A stretch of 5,148 nucleotides of DNA from a virus (taxonomy: Duplodnaviria > Heunggongvirae > Uroviricota > Caudoviricetes). Both the position numbers and the translations under genes were made by a program. Position 1 is the stretch's first letter; every line of letters starts with the position of its first letter. The notes beneath the pieces are model-generated. The model saw only the letters and a list, made by a program, of their open reading frames with translations, ran no database searches and was not told the origin of the DNA. This document shows, one piece after another, positions 1 to 5,148 of the stretch. The stretch is from IMG/VR virus record IMGVR_UViG_2651869782_000020. One strand, written 5' to 3'.

Positions 1-255
1 CAGTCGTGGCGAGGTCACGCGAGGCAACAGCGTGAACATGGTATCCGCTTTCAGATTCAGCACATCAGACAGCGACAGACCACGCAGGGATCCAGCCTGC
101 TCAATAGCCCCGGTGATCTCCACATACGTGATTTTTTCGCCACCACGCTCAATTGGTCGGGTCAGTTTTACGCCACGTTCGACAGCCATATCCTCACCTG
201 CCGTCACATCATCCGCCACGGTGTTATTCCGGGTTTCAGTATCGATGTCTTTCAT
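1..255 (-). CDS. Phage tail assembly chaperone gpE (P2 E-like), 5' part only; the 3' end and any E' frameshift extension lie beyond the left window edge
   Basis: ATG is the reverse complement of 253-255, preceded on the minus strand by AAAAGGAGAC (RBS). The frame stays open for all 85 codons to position 1 (MKDIDTETRNNTVADDVTAGEDMAVERGVKLTRPIERGGEKITYVEITGAIEQAGSLRGLSLSDVLNLKADTMFTLLPRVTSPRL). It sits immediately downstream of the tail tube gene, as E does in P2, and its size and composition resemble gpE. The antisense ORF 32-460 in the track is the shadow of this gene. Confidence 0.6.
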   Translation of the reverse strand, partial: MKDIDTETRNNTVADDVTAGEDMAVERGVKLTRPIERGGEKITYVEITGAIEQAGSLRGLSLSDVLNLKADTMFTLLPRVTSPRL

Positions 256-310
256 CAGTTGTCTCCTTTTCAGTCAGAGGCGACGCACTGCGCCGCCTGC
301 ATATTACTTA
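256..310 (-). other. FII-E intergenic spacer with a GC-rich imperfect hairpin (279-297) and the RBS for gpE
   Basis: Positions 279-297 ggcgacgcactgcgccgcc form an 8-position stem with one mismatch and a 3-nt loop. There is no U-tract after it on the minus strand, so it is not a classic intrinsic terminator. Confidence 0.25.
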
Positions 311-823
311 TCAGCCAAGCCCAAGCGCGGAACGGATACGGTCAGGCACAATGTCCTTGCCGTCCTTCCGGTAGATGTGGTTCAACAGGTCGATTTCCCA
401 CAGCGGGCGATCGTTAACGCTCAGCTTGTAGTAGGTGTTTTTGACAGCGTAAGTGTGTGATGTGGCTTCGCCCTGTTTGGCTTCCCCCATATCAATTTCC
501 GTCACACGTCCGCGCATCTCGATTTCATACAGATCGCTTTCTGCATCGGTGTAGTATTCACCCGCAAAACGCAGCAGCGTGCCGTCAATCGTGCCGCCAT
601 ATTTAAGGAACAGCGCACGAACAGCTCCCCCCATAACAAAACTCGCATCAAGCGCGGAGTCGTCCAGACCGAGATCAATACTTACCGCCCCCATCATGCC
701 ACCACCACGATAGCTGTCGGTTTTGCGCGTCAGTTTGGGCGGCGTGACGGATGTCACTTTACCCACTTCGTTTTCACCATCCACAAACAACGTAAAAAAG
801 CGAAGATGTTTTGGTACAGCCAT
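311..823 (-). CDS. FII: Phage tail tube protein gpFII (P2 FII-like)
   Basis: 170-aa ORF whose sequence (for example PKLTRKTDSYRGGGMMGAVSIDLGLDD and RFAGEYY...EIEMRGRVTEIDMGEAKQGE) follows the P2 FII tail tube family pattern as I recall it. The start codon overlaps the FI stop by one base (TGATG on the minus strand), suggesting translational coupling. A GGGAGG RBS lies inside the FI 3' end. Confidence 0.9.
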   Translation of the reverse strand: MAVPKHLRFFTLFVDGENEVGKVTSVTPPKLTRKTDSYRGGGMMGAVSIDLGLDDSALDASFVMGGAVRALFLKYGGTIDGTLLRFAGEYYTDAESDLYEIEMRGRVTEIDMGEAKQGEATSHTYAVKNTYYKLSVNDRPLWEIDLLNHIYRKDGKDIVPDRIRSALGLG

Positions 824-2007
824 CAGGCACCTCCCAGCACCGCAAATGCGGGACCAAAGAATTCATCAGTAAACGTCTGGTAAAGCTCCATGTCTTCCAG
901 TGGCGGAACGGGCGTATATTTGTAGCGAATACGCACACGCCCCTGACGTAAATCCGTGGTGCCGTTATCCACCACGTCATACCAGCACTCCGCGCCAATC
1001 AGTTTCCCGGCAGTAACCAGCGAATCCAGTTTTGCCCTGATGGCACTGATAACATCCTTCACGTTCGCAGGCGTCAGTGGACTGTCGATGGTTTCAAACT
1101 GCGCTTCCGCAATTGAATCAGCCAGCACCTGTGCGGTTCGGGTATACACCTCAAAGATGTAGGCGTTCGTTTCCGGTGTGCGGTTGCCCCAGAAGCGGAA
1201 CCCGTTGCGACGAATAATGGTCGTGATTTCTTTGTTGTTGAGGCTGTTGGCATCGCTGTCTTCGGCCTGCAACGACCAGAACACATGCCTCGACATCCCC
1301 AGCACATTTTTAACCGGAACGTTGGACAGTGATTTGTGCCACCCCTGCTCATGGTCAATGTACGCACGAAGGCCGCACGCATAGGCAGGCGCGGGGAACG
1401 TTTCGTTTTTGCCACTTTTCGGGTTGTAGGCGATGAAGTCCGGCCATAAGAGCATCACCTCACGTTCGTTGAATTTCTGGCGATAGGTAATCGCCTCAGC
1501 CATCGTGTTACAGCCGTGACATGAGGCATACACAAACGCGCGCAGTTTACCTGCAATCACGCACAGGGATTTTGTTACAGCCTCCGTGTCCAGCTCCGGC
1601 GCGGCCAGAATACGCGGACGGTATCCGATGCTTTCATCCTGCTCTGCAACAAGCAGCGCATACATCCCCGTATAGCTGCCGTCATCCTCAGAACCACCGA
1701 TAACCAGTTGATCCTGCGTCTTTCCGTCTTCTTCTTTGTGTTCAGCCACGCGAACGACGATCACCTTTGTGCTCACCTGGTCTGCGATGGCCTTAAGCGC
1801 ACGATAAAGCGTCCCCGTTGTTCCGCATTTTCCCAGCACGTCATTGACGCGGGTCAGCAATGTGGGCTTGTTCAGCGGGAACAGCTTCGCGTCCGCATCA
1901 TCCGCCGTTGCCACGATACCGATAACGCTGGAATCAACATCGTTAATCGCTGTTACCAGGTCGGTATTTTCCGTAACACGGGCACCATGAAAACGAGTTT
2001 CACTCAT
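823..2007 (-). CDS. FI: Phage contractile tail sheath protein gpFI (P2 FI-like)
   Basis: 394-aa ORF with hallmark sheath segments as I recall them (FPLNKP, KLRAF, WPDF, HEQGWHK(S/T)LSNV, IRRNGFRFWGNRT, YTRTAQV, YTPVPPLE). It lies directly upstream of FII on the same strand. An AAGGGG RBS precedes the ATG at the reverse complement of 2005-2007. Confidence 0.92.
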   Translation of the reverse strand: MSETRFHGARVTENTDLVTAINDVDSSVIGIVATADDADAKLFPLNKPTLLTRVNDVLGKCGTTGTLYRALKAIADQVSTKVIVVRVAEHKEEDGKTQDQLVIGGSEDDGSYTGMYALLVAEQDESIGYRPRILAAPELDTEAVTKSLCVIAGKLRAFVYASCHGCNTMAEAITYRQKFNEREVMLLWPDFIAYNPKSGKNETFPAPAYACGLRAYIDHEQGWHKSLSNVPVKNVLGMSRHVFWSLQAEDSDANSLNNKEITTIIRRNGFRFWGNRTPETNAYIFEVYTRTAQVLADSIAEAQFETIDSPLTPANVKDVISAIRAKLDSLVTAGKLIGAECWYDVVDNGTTDLRQGRVRIRYKYTPVPPLEDMELYQTFTDEFFGPAFAVLGGA

Positions 2008-2164
2008 AGCTTCAGCCCCTTGTATCCGTTAAATGATTCAGCAACAATCATCACCCACCACGCGCGTAATCTCACCCCTGCGCTATTCTCCCGCCACGGC
2101 GACAACAAAAAGCAGTAACCCCCTCCGCACGCACATGCGACCATGCCGCACAGGGAGGGAACAG
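2008..2164. promoter_or_regulatory. Divergent intergenic region between FI (minus) and D (plus); presumed to carry promoters for both
   Basis: 157-bp non-coding gap flanked by two divergently oriented start codons, each with its own RBS. No perfect TGT-N12-ACA late-promoter dyad was found by eye, and no promoter was confidently mapped. Confidence 0.3.
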
Positions 2165-3274
2165 ATGACCGACACCACCATGCAATTGCTCAGTCAGGGC
2201 ACAGACCCCGTGAAAATGCCGGATTTTGATATTCTCGCCGAGGGTAAAACGCTGTCCGGCGTGGCAGAACGCCTGATGAGCCTGTCACTGACCGACAACC
2301 GGGGATTTGAGGCGGACCAGCTCACCATCACGCTGGATGATGCCGATGACCAGTTGCAGCTACCGCCACGGGGCGCGCGTCTGACGGTTCTCATTGGCTG
2401 GAAAGGGGAACCGCTGACAGAAAAAGGCACTTACATTGTTGATGAAATCGCTCACGAAGGACCGCCGGACAGGCTGACTGTTTCAGCCAGAAGCGCAGAT
2501 TTTCGGGATGAATTTAATGTTAAACGTGAGGCGTCCTGGCATGATGTGACCGTTGAACGTGTGGTATCCGCCATCGCTCATCGGTACAGCCTGAAACCGC
2601 AAATCAGCGAAATGCTGATGGATATCGAAATCGACCACGCCGACCAGACTGAAGAAAGCGACATGTCCTTCCTTACGCGCATGGCGGAAATGCTGGGCGC
2701 AATCACCACGGTAAAAAGCGGTAATCTGTTATTCATCATGCCCGGCGGTGGCGTGAACGCACAGGGCCAGCCGTTGCCATCGTTCGCCATCACACGCAGC
2801 AGCGGCGATCGCCATCAGTTCCGCATTGCTGACCGCGAGGCGTATACGGGGGTACGCGCTTACTGGCTTGATCTTAATTACGGGAAAAAGAAAAAAGTCA
2901 GCGTGAAACGCCGCAAACCGCCAAAACCCAAAAAGGAGAAAAGCAGCAGCCGTGAAGGTGATTATATGGAAGGCGCGGAAGGCAATGTGTTTGTGTTACG
3001 CAAGACTTATCAGAACGAGCAGGCAGCAAGACGCGCAGCGGCGGCAAAGTGGCAGCAGCTACAACGCGGAGCCGCATTATTTTCCATCACGCTGGTGCGT
3101 GGACGTGCAGAACTCTACCCCGAAATGCATGGCACGGTAACAGGATTTAAAAGCGAGATTGATAATCAGGACTGGATTATTGCGAAAGCCGAGCACACCA
3201 TTGATAACAGCGGCTTTACCACACAGCTTGAGCTTGAGGCAAAAATCCCGGAATGGATAGCAGAAACAGAGTGA
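2165..3274 (+). CDS. D: Phage late control gene D protein / tail protein gpD (P2 D-like)
   Basis: Long plus-strand ORF. The preferred start is the ATG at 2165 (MTDTTMQLL...), which has a strong GGGAGGG RBS 5 nt upstream; the upstream in-frame ATGs at 2033 and 2135 lack an RBS. Length (369 aa) and sequence character fit the gpD family, and it sits directly upstream of ogr as D does in P2. It contains an unusual Lys-rich tract (KKKKVSVKRRKPPKPKKEK). Confidence 0.85.
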   Translation: MTDTTMQLLSQGTDPVKMPDFDILAEGKTLSGVAERLMSLSLTDNRGFEADQLTITLDDADDQLQLPPRGARLTVLIGWKGEPLTEKGTYIVDEIAHEGPPDRLTVSARSADFRDEFNVKREASWHDVTVERVVSAIAHRYSLKPQISEMLMDIEIDHADQTEESDMSFLTRMAEMLGAITTVKSGNLLFIMPGGGVNAQGQPLPSFAITRSSGDRHQFRIADREAYTGVRAYWLDLNYGKKKKVSVKRRKPPKPKKEKSSSREGDYMEGAEGNVFVLRKTYQNEQAARRAAAAKWQQLQRGAALFSITLVRGRAELYPEMHGTVTGFKSEIDNQDWIIAKAEHTIDNSGFTTQLELEAKIPEWIAETE

Positions 3275-3341
3275 GCAACTTAGACATATTAGCTCAAACT
3301 TAAACTGGCAAGTTTACAGTATAGAATTAAACATAAACGAC

Positions 3342-3370
3342 GGTCCGCTCCGTGTCAGAAGCGGACTTTG
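3342..3370. terminator. Putative bidirectional intrinsic terminator between convergent D and the cargo ORF
   Basis: Perfect 7-bp stem GTCCGCT (3343-3349) / AGCGGAC (3360-3366) with a 10-nt loop, followed on the plus strand by TTTG and on the minus strand by a T-rich run (cgtcgTTTaTgTTTaaTT). It lies between the D stop (3274) and the cargo ORF stop (3395). Confidence 0.35.
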
Positions 3371-3394
3371 TCATCCCTATGTAAGGTTGATTGC

Positions 3395-4417
3395 TTAATA
3401 CGCATTTAATTTAAATTTGTATTTGCCTTCTATGTAATGGATAAATTCAATTATGCTTTTTTCTATCGCATCTAATATATGAATATATCCATCCCGATTT
3501 AAGGTCCTATCCAACTCAAAGTGATGAACTATCCCATGTCTATATTGTATGATTTCAGAAATTCGATTCTCAAGAAAATCAACTGATTTTCCAATTCTTT
3601 TTTTCTTATAAAGAATCGCTCTCACATCTATATCCAGCCACTCTTTATATGCTTTGTTTAGGTGGGTTAAGTTTTGAAAAGTGTAATTTCTTGCAATAAC
3701 ACTTTCTATTGAAATATTTCCTTTCTCTATCTCAAGCAGAATATCAAAATCAACTTTTTGCTTATACGATGTTCTTTTTGCTATTGCGAAAGGATCGTAC
3801 TTTATAAGTATTTGAAAAGCTCTAGAGAAAAAGTATTCAAACATAGCAACCGCAAAAGGTACTAATCCATTATATATAACTCTACTGGGATCCATACATT
3901 GCATGTAATCAAAGTATTCGGATAAACCGCCATCTTCCGGTAGGTTTAATTTAATAGAAGGTTCAGGTAAGGCATGTTTAACAGCGGAAATCTCATGATG
4001 GACATGATTAAATATTGAAGAAATGCCACGACTGATCGGACTACTAGAATCCTTCCATAGAGGAGCGTACCTATTTTTCCCATAATCACCTATAAGTGTT
4101 CCACCAAAAAGACTCCTTGCGCCTTTTAGAACATCATTAAGCATTTTTACATCATGCCAACTAGCGCTATATAAATTACGCACATGCAATGCCCATTTAT
4201 TACCAGATATGTGTAATTCGTCATTTGAAACAGGATATATATCAGCCGAAACTCCATCTGTAGATTTGAAGTCCGTATCATCAAACCAAGAGTAATTCAA
4301 CGTTCCTTGGGGCCATTCCCTCAAATGTTTACACCTTTTAAAACCTAAATTTTCAAGGTAATTTTTAAGTTCGTTTCTAGTTGCTTTTTTAGGGTACAGC
4401 GTTATATCTCTTCCCAT
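3395..4417 (-). CDS. Hypothetical 340-aa cargo protein; candidate abortive-infection/defence protein with a C-terminal R-x4-H (HEPN-like) motif
   Basis: An uninterrupted 341-codon ORF in about 25-30% G+C DNA is very unlikely by chance. AGGTGA RBS lies upstream of the ATG (reverse complement of 4415-4417). The RHGIVHH motif was verified at nt 3521-3541 (reverse complement agacatgggatagttcatcac). No resemblance to P2 structural proteins. Confidence 0.8.
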   Translation of the reverse strand: MGRDITLYPKKATRNELKNYLENLGFKRCKHLREWPQGTLNYSWFDDTDFKSTDGVSADIYPVSNDELHISGNKWALHVRNLYSASWHDVKMLNDVLKGARSLFGGTLIGDYGKNRYAPLWKDSSSPISRGISSIFNHVHHEISAVKHALPEPSIKLNLPEDGGLSEYFDYMQCMDPSRVIYNGLVPFAVAMFEYFFSRAFQILIKYDPFAIAKRTSYKQKVDFDILLEIEKGNISIESVIARNYTFQNLTHLNKAYKEWLDIDVRAILYKKKRIGKSVDFLENRISEIIQYRHGIVHHFELDRTLNRDGYIHILDAIEKSIIEFIHYIEGKYKFKLNAY

Positions 4418-4549
4418 GCTTTATTCACCTGATATACAATATTTTAAATTTTAACTATTATGAACGTATGAATTTTCACATTGGATGTATGGAAGTTCAA
4501 CAACTATTGAAAGTTCAATTTTCACTCTTCGCACAGAGCGAGCTGTTAG

Positions 4550-4578
4550 TTGGAATTAGGGATCGTACAATCTAGAAT
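4550..4578 (+). promoter_or_regulatory. Putative sigma70 promoter for ogr (TTGGAA -35, 17-nt spacer, TAGAAT -10)
   Basis: -35-like TTGGAA at 4550-4555, a 17-nt spacer, and -10-like TAGAAT at 4573-4578, about 30 nt upstream of the ogr ATG. An AAGGGAGG RBS lies at 4596-4603. Confidence 0.35.
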
Positions 4579-4608
4579 AGCGGCAACACCACGTTAAGGG
4601 AGGTCGCT

Positions 4609-4869
4609 ATGTTCCGTTGTCCGCTTTGTGGCGCATCTGCCCGTATCCGCACAAGTCGTCCGGAAAATGATTCAAACACCGTGCGGCAAAAGTATTACCA
4701 GTGTAACAATCTGGAATGCGGCGTATGCTTCTCAACACTGGAAGCTTTCCATAAATTCACATCGAAACACGCCTCCGGCGTTCACTCTTCAGAAGGTATC
4801 CCGTGGCATGAGCTACCAGCTTCACACAGGGGAAACAATCAGATGAGTTTGCCTTTACCTCAGAATTAA
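4609..4869 (+). CDS. ogr: Ogr/Delta-family zinc-finger late transcription activator
   Basis: 86-aa ORF beginning MFRCPLCGASARIRTSR, with a C-x2-C ... C-x4-C arrangement (C4, C7, C32, C37), the same Cys4 layout as P2 Ogr (MFHCPLC...CQNVNC, as I recall it). Strong AAGGGAGG RBS. It sits downstream of D as in P2 and 186. Confidence 0.85.
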   Translation: MFRCPLCGASARIRTSRPENDSNTVRQKYYQCNNLECGVCFSTLEAFHKFTSKHASGVHSSEGIPWHELPASHRGNNQMSLPLPQN

Positions 4870-5148
4870 CAAGCAGAATTGCCGGAGTAACAAAAAAGCG
4901 ATAGATTACGCGCGGGTGCCTTTCGGCTGATGGTCGGAGGGAATACCCGAAGGCCAGATGTGGAAAGGCCCCGGAAAACACTTTTGTTTAACCGAGGCCC
5001 TAACCGTCTACCCTAAGCAAGTGAAAGGTTAGCGCCTCTCCGGAAAAGGAGCAAGTGCTTGTATGGGTCCACCACATATTGCAATTTTTATTCTCTTTTA
5101 AAATATATTCCACGGGCGTCATTAGTGCGAGCGCCTTGTGGGGTCTTT

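Follow-up and report, generated by a model that had tools for sequence, protein, structure and literature searches.

We analyzed a 5,148-nucleotide stretch of DNA from the virus record IMGVR_UViG_2651869782_000020 (the window, by which we mean the whole stretch) and found that, between the late control gene D and the late-gene activator gene ogr of a prophage, it carries an AT-rich island with a single gene for a protein of 340 amino acids (aa). Judged by its motif, its profile matches and its predicted fold, this protein is best described as an uncharacterized HEPN-domain protein, not an orphan, and the D-ogr junction in which its gene lies is a cargo hotspot in P88-like prophages. We lean slightly toward a reading, built on analogy with known systems, in which the gene is a self-contained moron encoding a prophage-borne, single-protein HEPN abortive-infection RNase.

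The island is an insertion relative to phage P88. By blastn, the P88 alignment covers window positions 1-3288 and 4573-5062 with a gap between them, and the distance from the D stop codon to the ogr start codon is 42 bp in P88 versus 1,334 bp in the window. The DNA absent from P88 spans ~3286-4577 (1,292 bp). Copies of a short (T/C)TAGA repeat lie at its two ends, and the first of them, TTAGA, marks the left junction at 3280-3285; similarity to P88 stops at 3288. The G+C fraction drops from 0.50-0.59 to 0.30-0.39 over ~3150-4650 and is 0.335 for the cargo gene, 0.339 for the island, and 0.538 for the left flank. A scan for open reading frames (ORFs) placed the cargo gene at 3395-4417 (minus strand). 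The island contained no second credible ORF, no tandem repeats (Tandem Repeats Finder and a repeat search over 3275-4620), and no Rfam RNA. Between the convergent D and HEPN genes, a terminator scan of both strands found a GC-rich hairpin at 3343-3366 with a 9-bp stem that includes 6 GC pairs. The 76 nt around this hairpin fold at -26.5 kcal/mol (z = -5.9 against shuffled sequences), and it is a probable terminator for both directions. An earlier note, made from the sequence alone, had described an AT-rich island of about 1.3 kb between D and ogr, one opposite-strand gene of 340 aa in it, and a hairpin terminator on one side, and all of these features held up.

The same note credited the gene with an AT-rich upstream region of its own, and here the region itself stood, as it is present and shared with the Hafnia and Mixta copies of the gene, while its promoter is a candidate only. 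About 190 bp of DNA lie upstream of the cargo gene inside the island. Nucleotide similarity of 82-84% runs from 4535 to 3379 in the Hafnia copy and to 3343 in the Mixta copy, such that the Mixta match spans the upstream region, the gene and the terminator hairpin, and the Hafnia match spans the upstream region and the gene. As delimited by these matches, the mobile unit is ~3343/3379-4535, and the upstream part that moves with the gene is 4418-4535 (118 bp, minus strand). Reading of the minus strand located a Shine-Dalgarno sequence, AGGTGA, at 4425-4430 and, by eye, a candidate promoter that falls below the threshold of our promoter scan (-35 TTGAAC at 4495-4500, a 17-nt spacer, and TGtGAAAAT at 4472-4480). 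Overlapping this candidate -35 is a direct repeat, TGGAAGTTCAA and TGAAAGTTCAA, with its copies 18 bp apart (4490-4518), which is possibly an operator or a duplicated -35. Copies of the gene from Aeromonas, Pantoea and Halochromatium (L005, L009 and L011) have a motif in common, CACAGYCT...ATA...ACTGTYATRTG, ~30-60 nt 5' of the start codon. This motif is absent from the E. coli island; it may act as a promoter or operator and be carried along by some forms of the cassette.

To see how often the junction is occupied, we ran a 242-bp probe spanning the empty P88 junction against 5,426 complete Escherichia coli genomes. The probe matched 1,200 of these genomes and was uninterrupted in 720 of the 1,200. 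The HEPN island was found in 65 of the 5,426 genomes, in one copy each, on the chromosome, and always between D and ogr; its full-length ORF was kept in all 65 at 97.6-99.9% identity. The island-bearing strains belong to diverse pathotypes, including enterotoxigenic E. coli from pigs, sequence type 131, O55:H7, and avian pathogenic E. coli.

Of the 1,563 records that matched from D to ogr, 60 were sampled at even spacing, and the alternative inserts at the junction were then confirmed in annotated records. They comprised a DUF2971 protein of 261 aa (L013) that matches the PADLOC candidate PDC-S31, a PIN_4 protein of 500 aa (L014:1701-3203), a DUF3800 protein of 389 aa (L015:1567-2736), a SEC-C/YecA-family protein of 379 aa (L016:1866-3005), a 201-aa protein without a known family in O157:H7 (hyp201; L017:1628-2233), a two-gene cargo of 186 and 134 aa with no known family (L018:1691-2642), a 384-aa protein with no known family (L019:1593-2747), and the insertion sequence IS600. 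The DUF2971 protein was the only alternative cargo with a match to a defense model, and the four proteins of the three cargos in L017-L019 matched nothing in Pfam or PADLOC. All cargos share the same ends, ~20 bp after the D stop codon and ~35 bp before ogr. The earlier note had proposed aligning P2-like prophages to see whether the junction is variably occupied, and it is, with empty junctions, HEPN islands, and at least seven other cargos at one site. The note's description of the island as moron-type cargo also fits the foreign composition, the single gene with its own terminator, and the absence of the island from P88 and most of its relatives; the HEPN gene is not conserved at D-ogr, and its product matched no housekeeping phage protein.

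The conserved ends of the cargos read TTARATGYATTAGYTCAG on the left and CAGTTGGAnTCTGAGCnAGTACAACTTAGAAT on the right (L013-L019; window 3275-3300 and 4540-4580). Spanning the right junction of the island, a promoter scan found a candidate ogr promoter on the plus strand, TTGGAA-17-TAGAAT, at 4550-4578, and the pattern TTGGA(A/G/T)-17-TA(G/A)AAT stands before ogr behind 7 of 8 different cargos, where it is plausibly the ogr promoter. The empty P88 junction (L002:6256-6297) keeps the -10 TAGAAT and has no recognizable -35. Because the empty site has a -10 without a -35, it may have arisen by deletion between the TTAGA repeats, and ogr may be expressed differently depending on whether the junction is filled. 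To the eye, terminal inverted repeats seemed to flank the cargos; we considered them as an insertion mechanism for the island and dropped them, as the island scored 5 against a shuffle mean of 6 in a local-alignment test. The ends of the YecA-type cargo in L016 and of hyp201 in L017 do form an imperfect inverted repeat, with the observed score reached by 0 and 5 of 500 shuffles, respectively; this repeat may be a site of recombination, the relic of a hairpin, or nothing more than a promoter.

Hotspots described for P2 in the literature are A-Q (old/tin), Z/fun in the tail genes, att-int, int-A, and "tail protein to CI" (PMC9122126, Rousset et al. 2022; PMC13586616; bioRxiv 10.1101/2024.10.15.618418). 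None of these three sources names a D-ogr hotspot, and "ogr" has zero occurrences in them; a wider literature search for the hotspot or the HEPN protein returned nothing relevant. The D-ogr hotspot of P88-like prophages appears to be undescribed so far. It resembles the classical P2 hotspots in being a fixed intergenic site at which AT-rich cassettes of one or two genes are quickly exchanged, many of them defense systems in the classical case. It differs from them in its position, in its mostly unannotated cargos, and in being seen in Xuanwuvirus and Gemsvirus prophages.

The protein itself has two domains. An AlphaFold2 model with a mean predicted local distance difference test score (pLDDT) of 85.9 shows an alpha/beta domain at residues 1-125 (4043-4417, minus strand), a long helix at 127-149, and an all-alpha domain at 167-333 (3419-3919, minus strand). 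The C-terminal domain contains the Rx4H catalytic motif R293-H-G-I-V-H298, read from the sequence at 3524-3541 (minus strand), in which the polar residue typical of HEPN motifs, H294, directly follows R293, and the model has the all-alpha helical bundle of that superfamily. Across 56 sequences of 19-62% identity, D89, E194, R293 and H298 are invariant, and H294, F247, Q248, G55, N94, F104-G105-G106 and G113 are at least 90% conserved. Pfam gave a single weak match, to HEPN_RiboL-PSP (PF18735), which covers residues 181-329 and profile positions 29-189 of 191 (E = 2.5e-4, 21.4 bits). Thirty-eight of the 56 relatives match the same profile at E<=0.01, the best at 5.1e-9. Because of the Rx4H motif, the PF18735 matches, and the all-alpha fold, we assign the C-terminal domain, at the level of sequence and predicted structure, as a HEPN domain that lies on the margin of the RiboL-PSP clade; it is predicted to be a metal-independent endoribonuclease. 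The earlier note had been unable to place the protein in any family, a statement that no longer applies, since HEPN is a recognizable superfamily for it and PF18735 the nearest Pfam entry.

Homologues are few, uniform in length, and widely scattered. A search of 5.8 billion proteins found 295, and nearly all of the 120 that were listed are 338-347 aa long and 64-87% identical. Their sources are Pantoea, Proteus, Shewanella, Aeromonas, Pseudomonas, Methylococcaceae and Halochromatium, and a precomputed PF18735 label is attached to most of them. When 1.84 billion cluster representatives were searched exhaustively with a profile, only 341 were recovered at E<=0.001, and the complete sequences among the best 150 keep ~330-350 aa with both domains matched. 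No N-terminal domain joined to a different effector occurred among these best 150 of the 341 representatives; two apparent cases of other architectures, P0123 and P0197, were rejected, their sequences being read as frameshift artifacts. Neither a CARF domain nor any other ligand-binding domain was detected in our searches, Pfam among them, and Foldseek comparison with the PDB and BFVD returned nothing at E<0.03. In the searches made, the N-terminal domain is confined to the 340-aa family.

A pattern-based survey of one genome per species (185,579 species) found 34 loci in more than 10 phyla at 56-87% identity, with representatives in Gammaproteobacteria, Betaproteobacteria, Desulfobacterota, Bacteroidota, Gemmatimonadota, Acidobacteriota, Spirochaetia, Cyanobacteria and Patescibacteria, as well as others. 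The D-ogr context among the 34 survey loci was limited to an E. coli-like contig. By tblastn the gene is in one phage record only (deposited twice) and in no plasmid, and in every locus examined it is AT-rich relative to its surroundings. Two E. coli alleles differ by 13 synonymous and 7 nonsynonymous changes, for a ratio of nonsynonymous to synonymous substitution rates (dN/dS) of 0.13. With 295 homologues of matching length and this dN/dS, the ORF is not a chance reading frame. Taken together, these comparisons indicate a gene that is functional, strongly constrained, rare, and horizontally transferred. One locus deserves separate mention. L027, a 4.2-kb contig binned in the metagenome-assembled genome "Planococcaceae bacterium UBA3378," has a 100% identical gene between a D fragment at 98% and an ogr at 74%. 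The contig almost certainly stems from Enterobacteriaceae and was binned wrongly into a Firmicutes genome, and it shows the cassette also in a second, more divergent P88-like lineage.

No partner gene is shared across nine homologue contexts, and those neighborhoods that can be recognized are of mobile-element or defense type. In Pantoea the homologue lies in a lambdoid prophage with a SIR2_2 gene a few genes off, and in Pseudomonas it lies in an integrase/AlpA/DUF927 island adjoining a UvrD-helicase pair. A further copy is in an island next to smpB that also has AbiTii, a type I methylase and two integrases; one context has an HNH neighbor, and another a DUF4160/DUF2442 pair. The Aeromonas and Shewanella homologues lie among housekeeping genes. 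In Aeromonas dhakensis (L005:9064-9957), a 297-aa gene with a faint CBS match begins 40 bp 3' of the homologue on the same strand; this neighbor was not seen in the other genera.

The closest functional parallels are single polypeptides with a HEPN RNase. HepS, a solo HEPN protein, is encoded at an accessory position of the Gifsy-1 prophage; it forms an auto-inhibited tetramer that is activated by siphovirus tail-tip proteins and cleaves tRNA anticodon loops, and it is self-inhibited without an antitoxin (Sargen et al., Nature 2026, PMC13043305). Like HepS, the 340-aa protein is the product of a single prophage accessory gene that has neither a partner nor an inhibitor gene beside it; both proteins have a canonical Rx4-6H motif, and both are often prophage-borne. 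No homology between the two was found. DARNA, HepS and ApeA all cleave tRNA, and in DARNA/PD-T7-3 and ApeA a second domain senses infection; the members of this group that have been characterized are abortive nucleases of tRNA anticodons. With DARNA/PD-T7-3 and ApeA, the 340-aa protein shares the combination, in one polypeptide, of a HEPN RNase domain and a domain that would be a non-catalytic sensor. DARNA differs in having its HEPN domain at the N terminus (residues 1-159) and a helical Pds5-like domain at the C terminus of a 456-aa protein that forms a dodecamer, and the N-terminal alpha/beta domain described here is unrelated to DARNA or ApeA. By sequence, then, the protein is not a member of the HepS, DARNA or ApeA systems, and it is by analogy that it may function like them.

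Other HEPN groups are less similar. The PF18735 clade offers the sole sequence-profile relationship found, and AbiD and AbiF, which act in abortive infection, are described as distant relatives of the clade (Anantharaman et al. 2013). The clade owes its name to an endoRNase L-PSP fusion and a ParB neighbor; the 340-aa protein has no such fusion, and its gene has no ParB neighbor in the nine contexts. AbiF differs in that the 340-aa gene has none of the AbiF-type RNA antitoxin repeats, and no type III repeat array of this kind was found 5' of the gene over 3275-4620. RnlA/LsoA (RNase LS) is alike in size and domain order only: ~95 residues superpose (Foldseek E = 0.07, template modeling score 0.18), neither Pfam RnlA nor HEPN_RnaseLS matches, and no antitoxin gene is adjacent, so that both marks of this type II toxin-antitoxin family are lacking.

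Because of the analogy with HepS, DARNA/PD-T7-3 and ApeA, we propose the following model. The protein would be expressed from its own promoter in the lysogen and kept inactive, with the N-terminal domain serving as a regulatory or sensor module that holds the HEPN domain in its inactive state. A phage component would bind the N-terminal domain and switch the oligomer, and two Rx4H motifs would thereby combine into a competent site. The enzyme would then cut tRNA anticodon loops or mRNA, arresting translation and aborting the infection, which would protect the lysogen population and hence the prophage. The HEPN assignment and the genomic contexts both strengthen the case for an anti-phage role; the RNase activity, its substrate, its trigger, expression in the lysogen, and the resulting phenotype are put forward here by analogy.

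Several observations weigh against this model. In the structure model, the Rx4H stretch has a pLDDT of ~68 and is among the two least confident blocks, and the PF18735 score of 21.4 bits lies below the gathering score of 28.4, short of membership in that family. Models of PADLOC-DB v2.0, among them the PDC candidates, PD-T7-3 and ApeA, gave 0 matches at E<=10 for the protein and two stray ones among the 56 relatives. NCBIfam and PHROGs provided no usable match, and searches of PDB sequences with the protein and with a 35-sequence profile gave noise only. Of the databases that the earlier note had named, Pfam returned the weak PF18735 match and the PDB sequences and PADLOC nothing usable, and the structural approach it had suggested yielded the AlphaFold2 model and no Foldseek match under the cutoff given above. 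In a simple promoter scan, the minus strand ahead of the cargo gene yielded no consensus sigma-70 promoter, and the candidate at 4472-4500 is sub-consensus and was proposed by eye. The Aeromonas, Shewanella and Hafnia contexts contain no recognizable defense or mobile-element genes, and some copies sit in a degraded prophage remnant, as in strain H1, where IS1 and a truncated integrase and tail fiber are present. Finally, no homologue of tested function supports an anti-phage role.

The gene could instead belong to an addiction or toxin module with an unrecognized antitoxin (a small RNA, a peptide or a prophage factor), whose main effect would be stability of the prophage or the cassette. This is unlikely: the island offers no adjacent ORF, tandem repeat or Rfam RNA to act as one, no partner recurs across the nine contexts, the upstream sequence is not conserved across genera, and the cassette moves as a single gene, while HepS illustrates that a solo HEPN protein can inhibit itself without an antitoxin.

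A role in counter-defense or host takeover, through degradation of cyclic-oligonucleotide immune signals or host transcripts while P88 grows lytically, or through action against P4-type satellites that make use of ogr-dependent late promoters, would suit a gene that adjoins the late regulator ogr, the more so as P4 satellites parasitize P2-like phages and some HEPN proteins, according to review text, deplete cyclic oligoadenylates. We nevertheless consider it quite improbable. The gene runs opposite to the phage genes on either side, and an upstream region and a terminator of its own go with it, an arrangement typical of lysogen-expressed morons; many homologues lie in non-phage chromosomal islands; no CARF or ligand-binding domain was detected; and anti-defense genes are rare in P2-like prophages (28 of 1,511; PMC13586616).

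Lysogenic conversion unrelated to phages, with an RNase that tunes host RNA turnover, stress or persistence, would agree with the diversity of the pathotypes that carry the island and with the Aeromonas and Shewanella copies among housekeeping genes. The sparse and patchy spread, the high identity across phyla, and the swapping of cargo form the pattern of a conflict system, however, and the neighborhoods that can be recognized are of mobile-element or defense type; this alternative, too, has in our view a low probability. That the island is a decaying hitchhiker, inert foreign DNA that happens to retain an ORF, would match the degraded H1 prophage and the lack of a consensus promoter and is effectively refuted by conservation, given a full-length ORF in 65/65 genomes, a dN/dS of 0.13, a conserved two-domain length, and invariant catalytic residues.

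The prophage around the island can be placed from its sequence. The window matches "Escherichia phage 500465-2" (Gemsvirus) at 97.8% identity over 98% of its length, and P88, P884B11 and their relatives (Xuanwuvirus) at 93.6-97.9% identity over 73% of its length only, in two pieces. It represents the right arm of an E. coli prophage that is P88-like and P2-related. It contains the tail tube gene FII (311-823, minus strand), the tail sheath gene FI (823-2007, minus strand), and, as the left flank of the hotspot, the gene for gpD (late control D, baseplate hub) on the plus strand at 2165-3274. The D reading frame is open over 2033-3274 and matches Pfam Phage_GPD at E = 8.6e-17; the likely start at 2165 is supported by the N-terminal sequence MTDTTMQLL, which is the same as that of the P88 D protein. 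The right flank is ogr (4609-4869, plus strand; Pfam Ogr_Delta, E = 5e-14). Annotated records have the same layout, with FI-FII-E-T-U on one strand, D and ogr on the other, and a phage-borne hok/sok module after them. The earlier note had set the island in a canonical P2 arrangement. The adjacency of D and ogr is indeed common to P2 and P88-like phages; the gene order is otherwise not that of P2, as the phage is P88-like (Xuanwuvirus/Gemsvirus) and its FI-FII-E-T-U strand is opposite to D-ogr.

Within 311-3274 of the window, ~150 bp separate the start of FI from that of D, which is read, like ogr, from the other strand than FI and FII. The Prokaryotic Genome Annotation Pipeline often annotates gpD here as a truncated 266-aa "VgrG/Pvc8" plus a pseudogene; the full 369-aa frame is nevertheless open. 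A match to sok (Rfam RF01794) at 4914-5065 scores 52.4 bits, under the gathering score of 59 (E = 6.7e-10), and the hok/sok ("MokW-like") module 3' of ogr belongs to the P88 phage genome, not to the chromosome. The last 89 bases of the window (5060-5148) diverge from every otherwise near-identical E. coli locus and are the end of an IS481-family insertion sequence, inserted exactly before the hok ATG. This element is present in up to 38 copies per genome, half of them on plasmids. Because of its insertion, the source strain differs at 5060-5148 from all complete genomes.

New bacterial immune systems have come from prophage hotspots more than from any other source, and HepS, DARNA and ApeA now serve as models of a single polypeptide that detects a phage and also carries out abortive infection. 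The family described here is a compact, 340-aa test case, 56-87% identical across phyla and equipped with a sensor-like domain without known relatives. None of the defense databases that we searched contains it, and the fragment with its native signals is ~1.2 kb. That P2-family hotspots hold cargo genes is expected. The novelty lies in the family found here, with an N-terminal domain of its own, extreme conservation and no entry in the defense databases searched, and in the apparently undescribed D-ogr hotspot. That junction is occupied in ~40% of P88-like E. coli prophages, and its mostly unannotated cargos provide a candidate set. If the gene is not defensive, it would be an unusual HEPN RNase, widely transferred and strongly constrained, with another role. 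A broader reading, which we hold tentatively and with somewhat less confidence than the abortive-infection role itself, is that the gene represents a new autonomous single-protein abortive-infection system, in which an undescribed alpha/beta sensor would gate a HEPN RNase, and that D-ogr is an unmined hotspot with other new anti-phage cargos. The DUF2971 protein (PDC-S31) is already a PADLOC candidate; if this reading is true, the PIN_4, DUF3800 and SEC-C proteins and the four unannotated proteins of three further cargos would also be new anti-phage genes.

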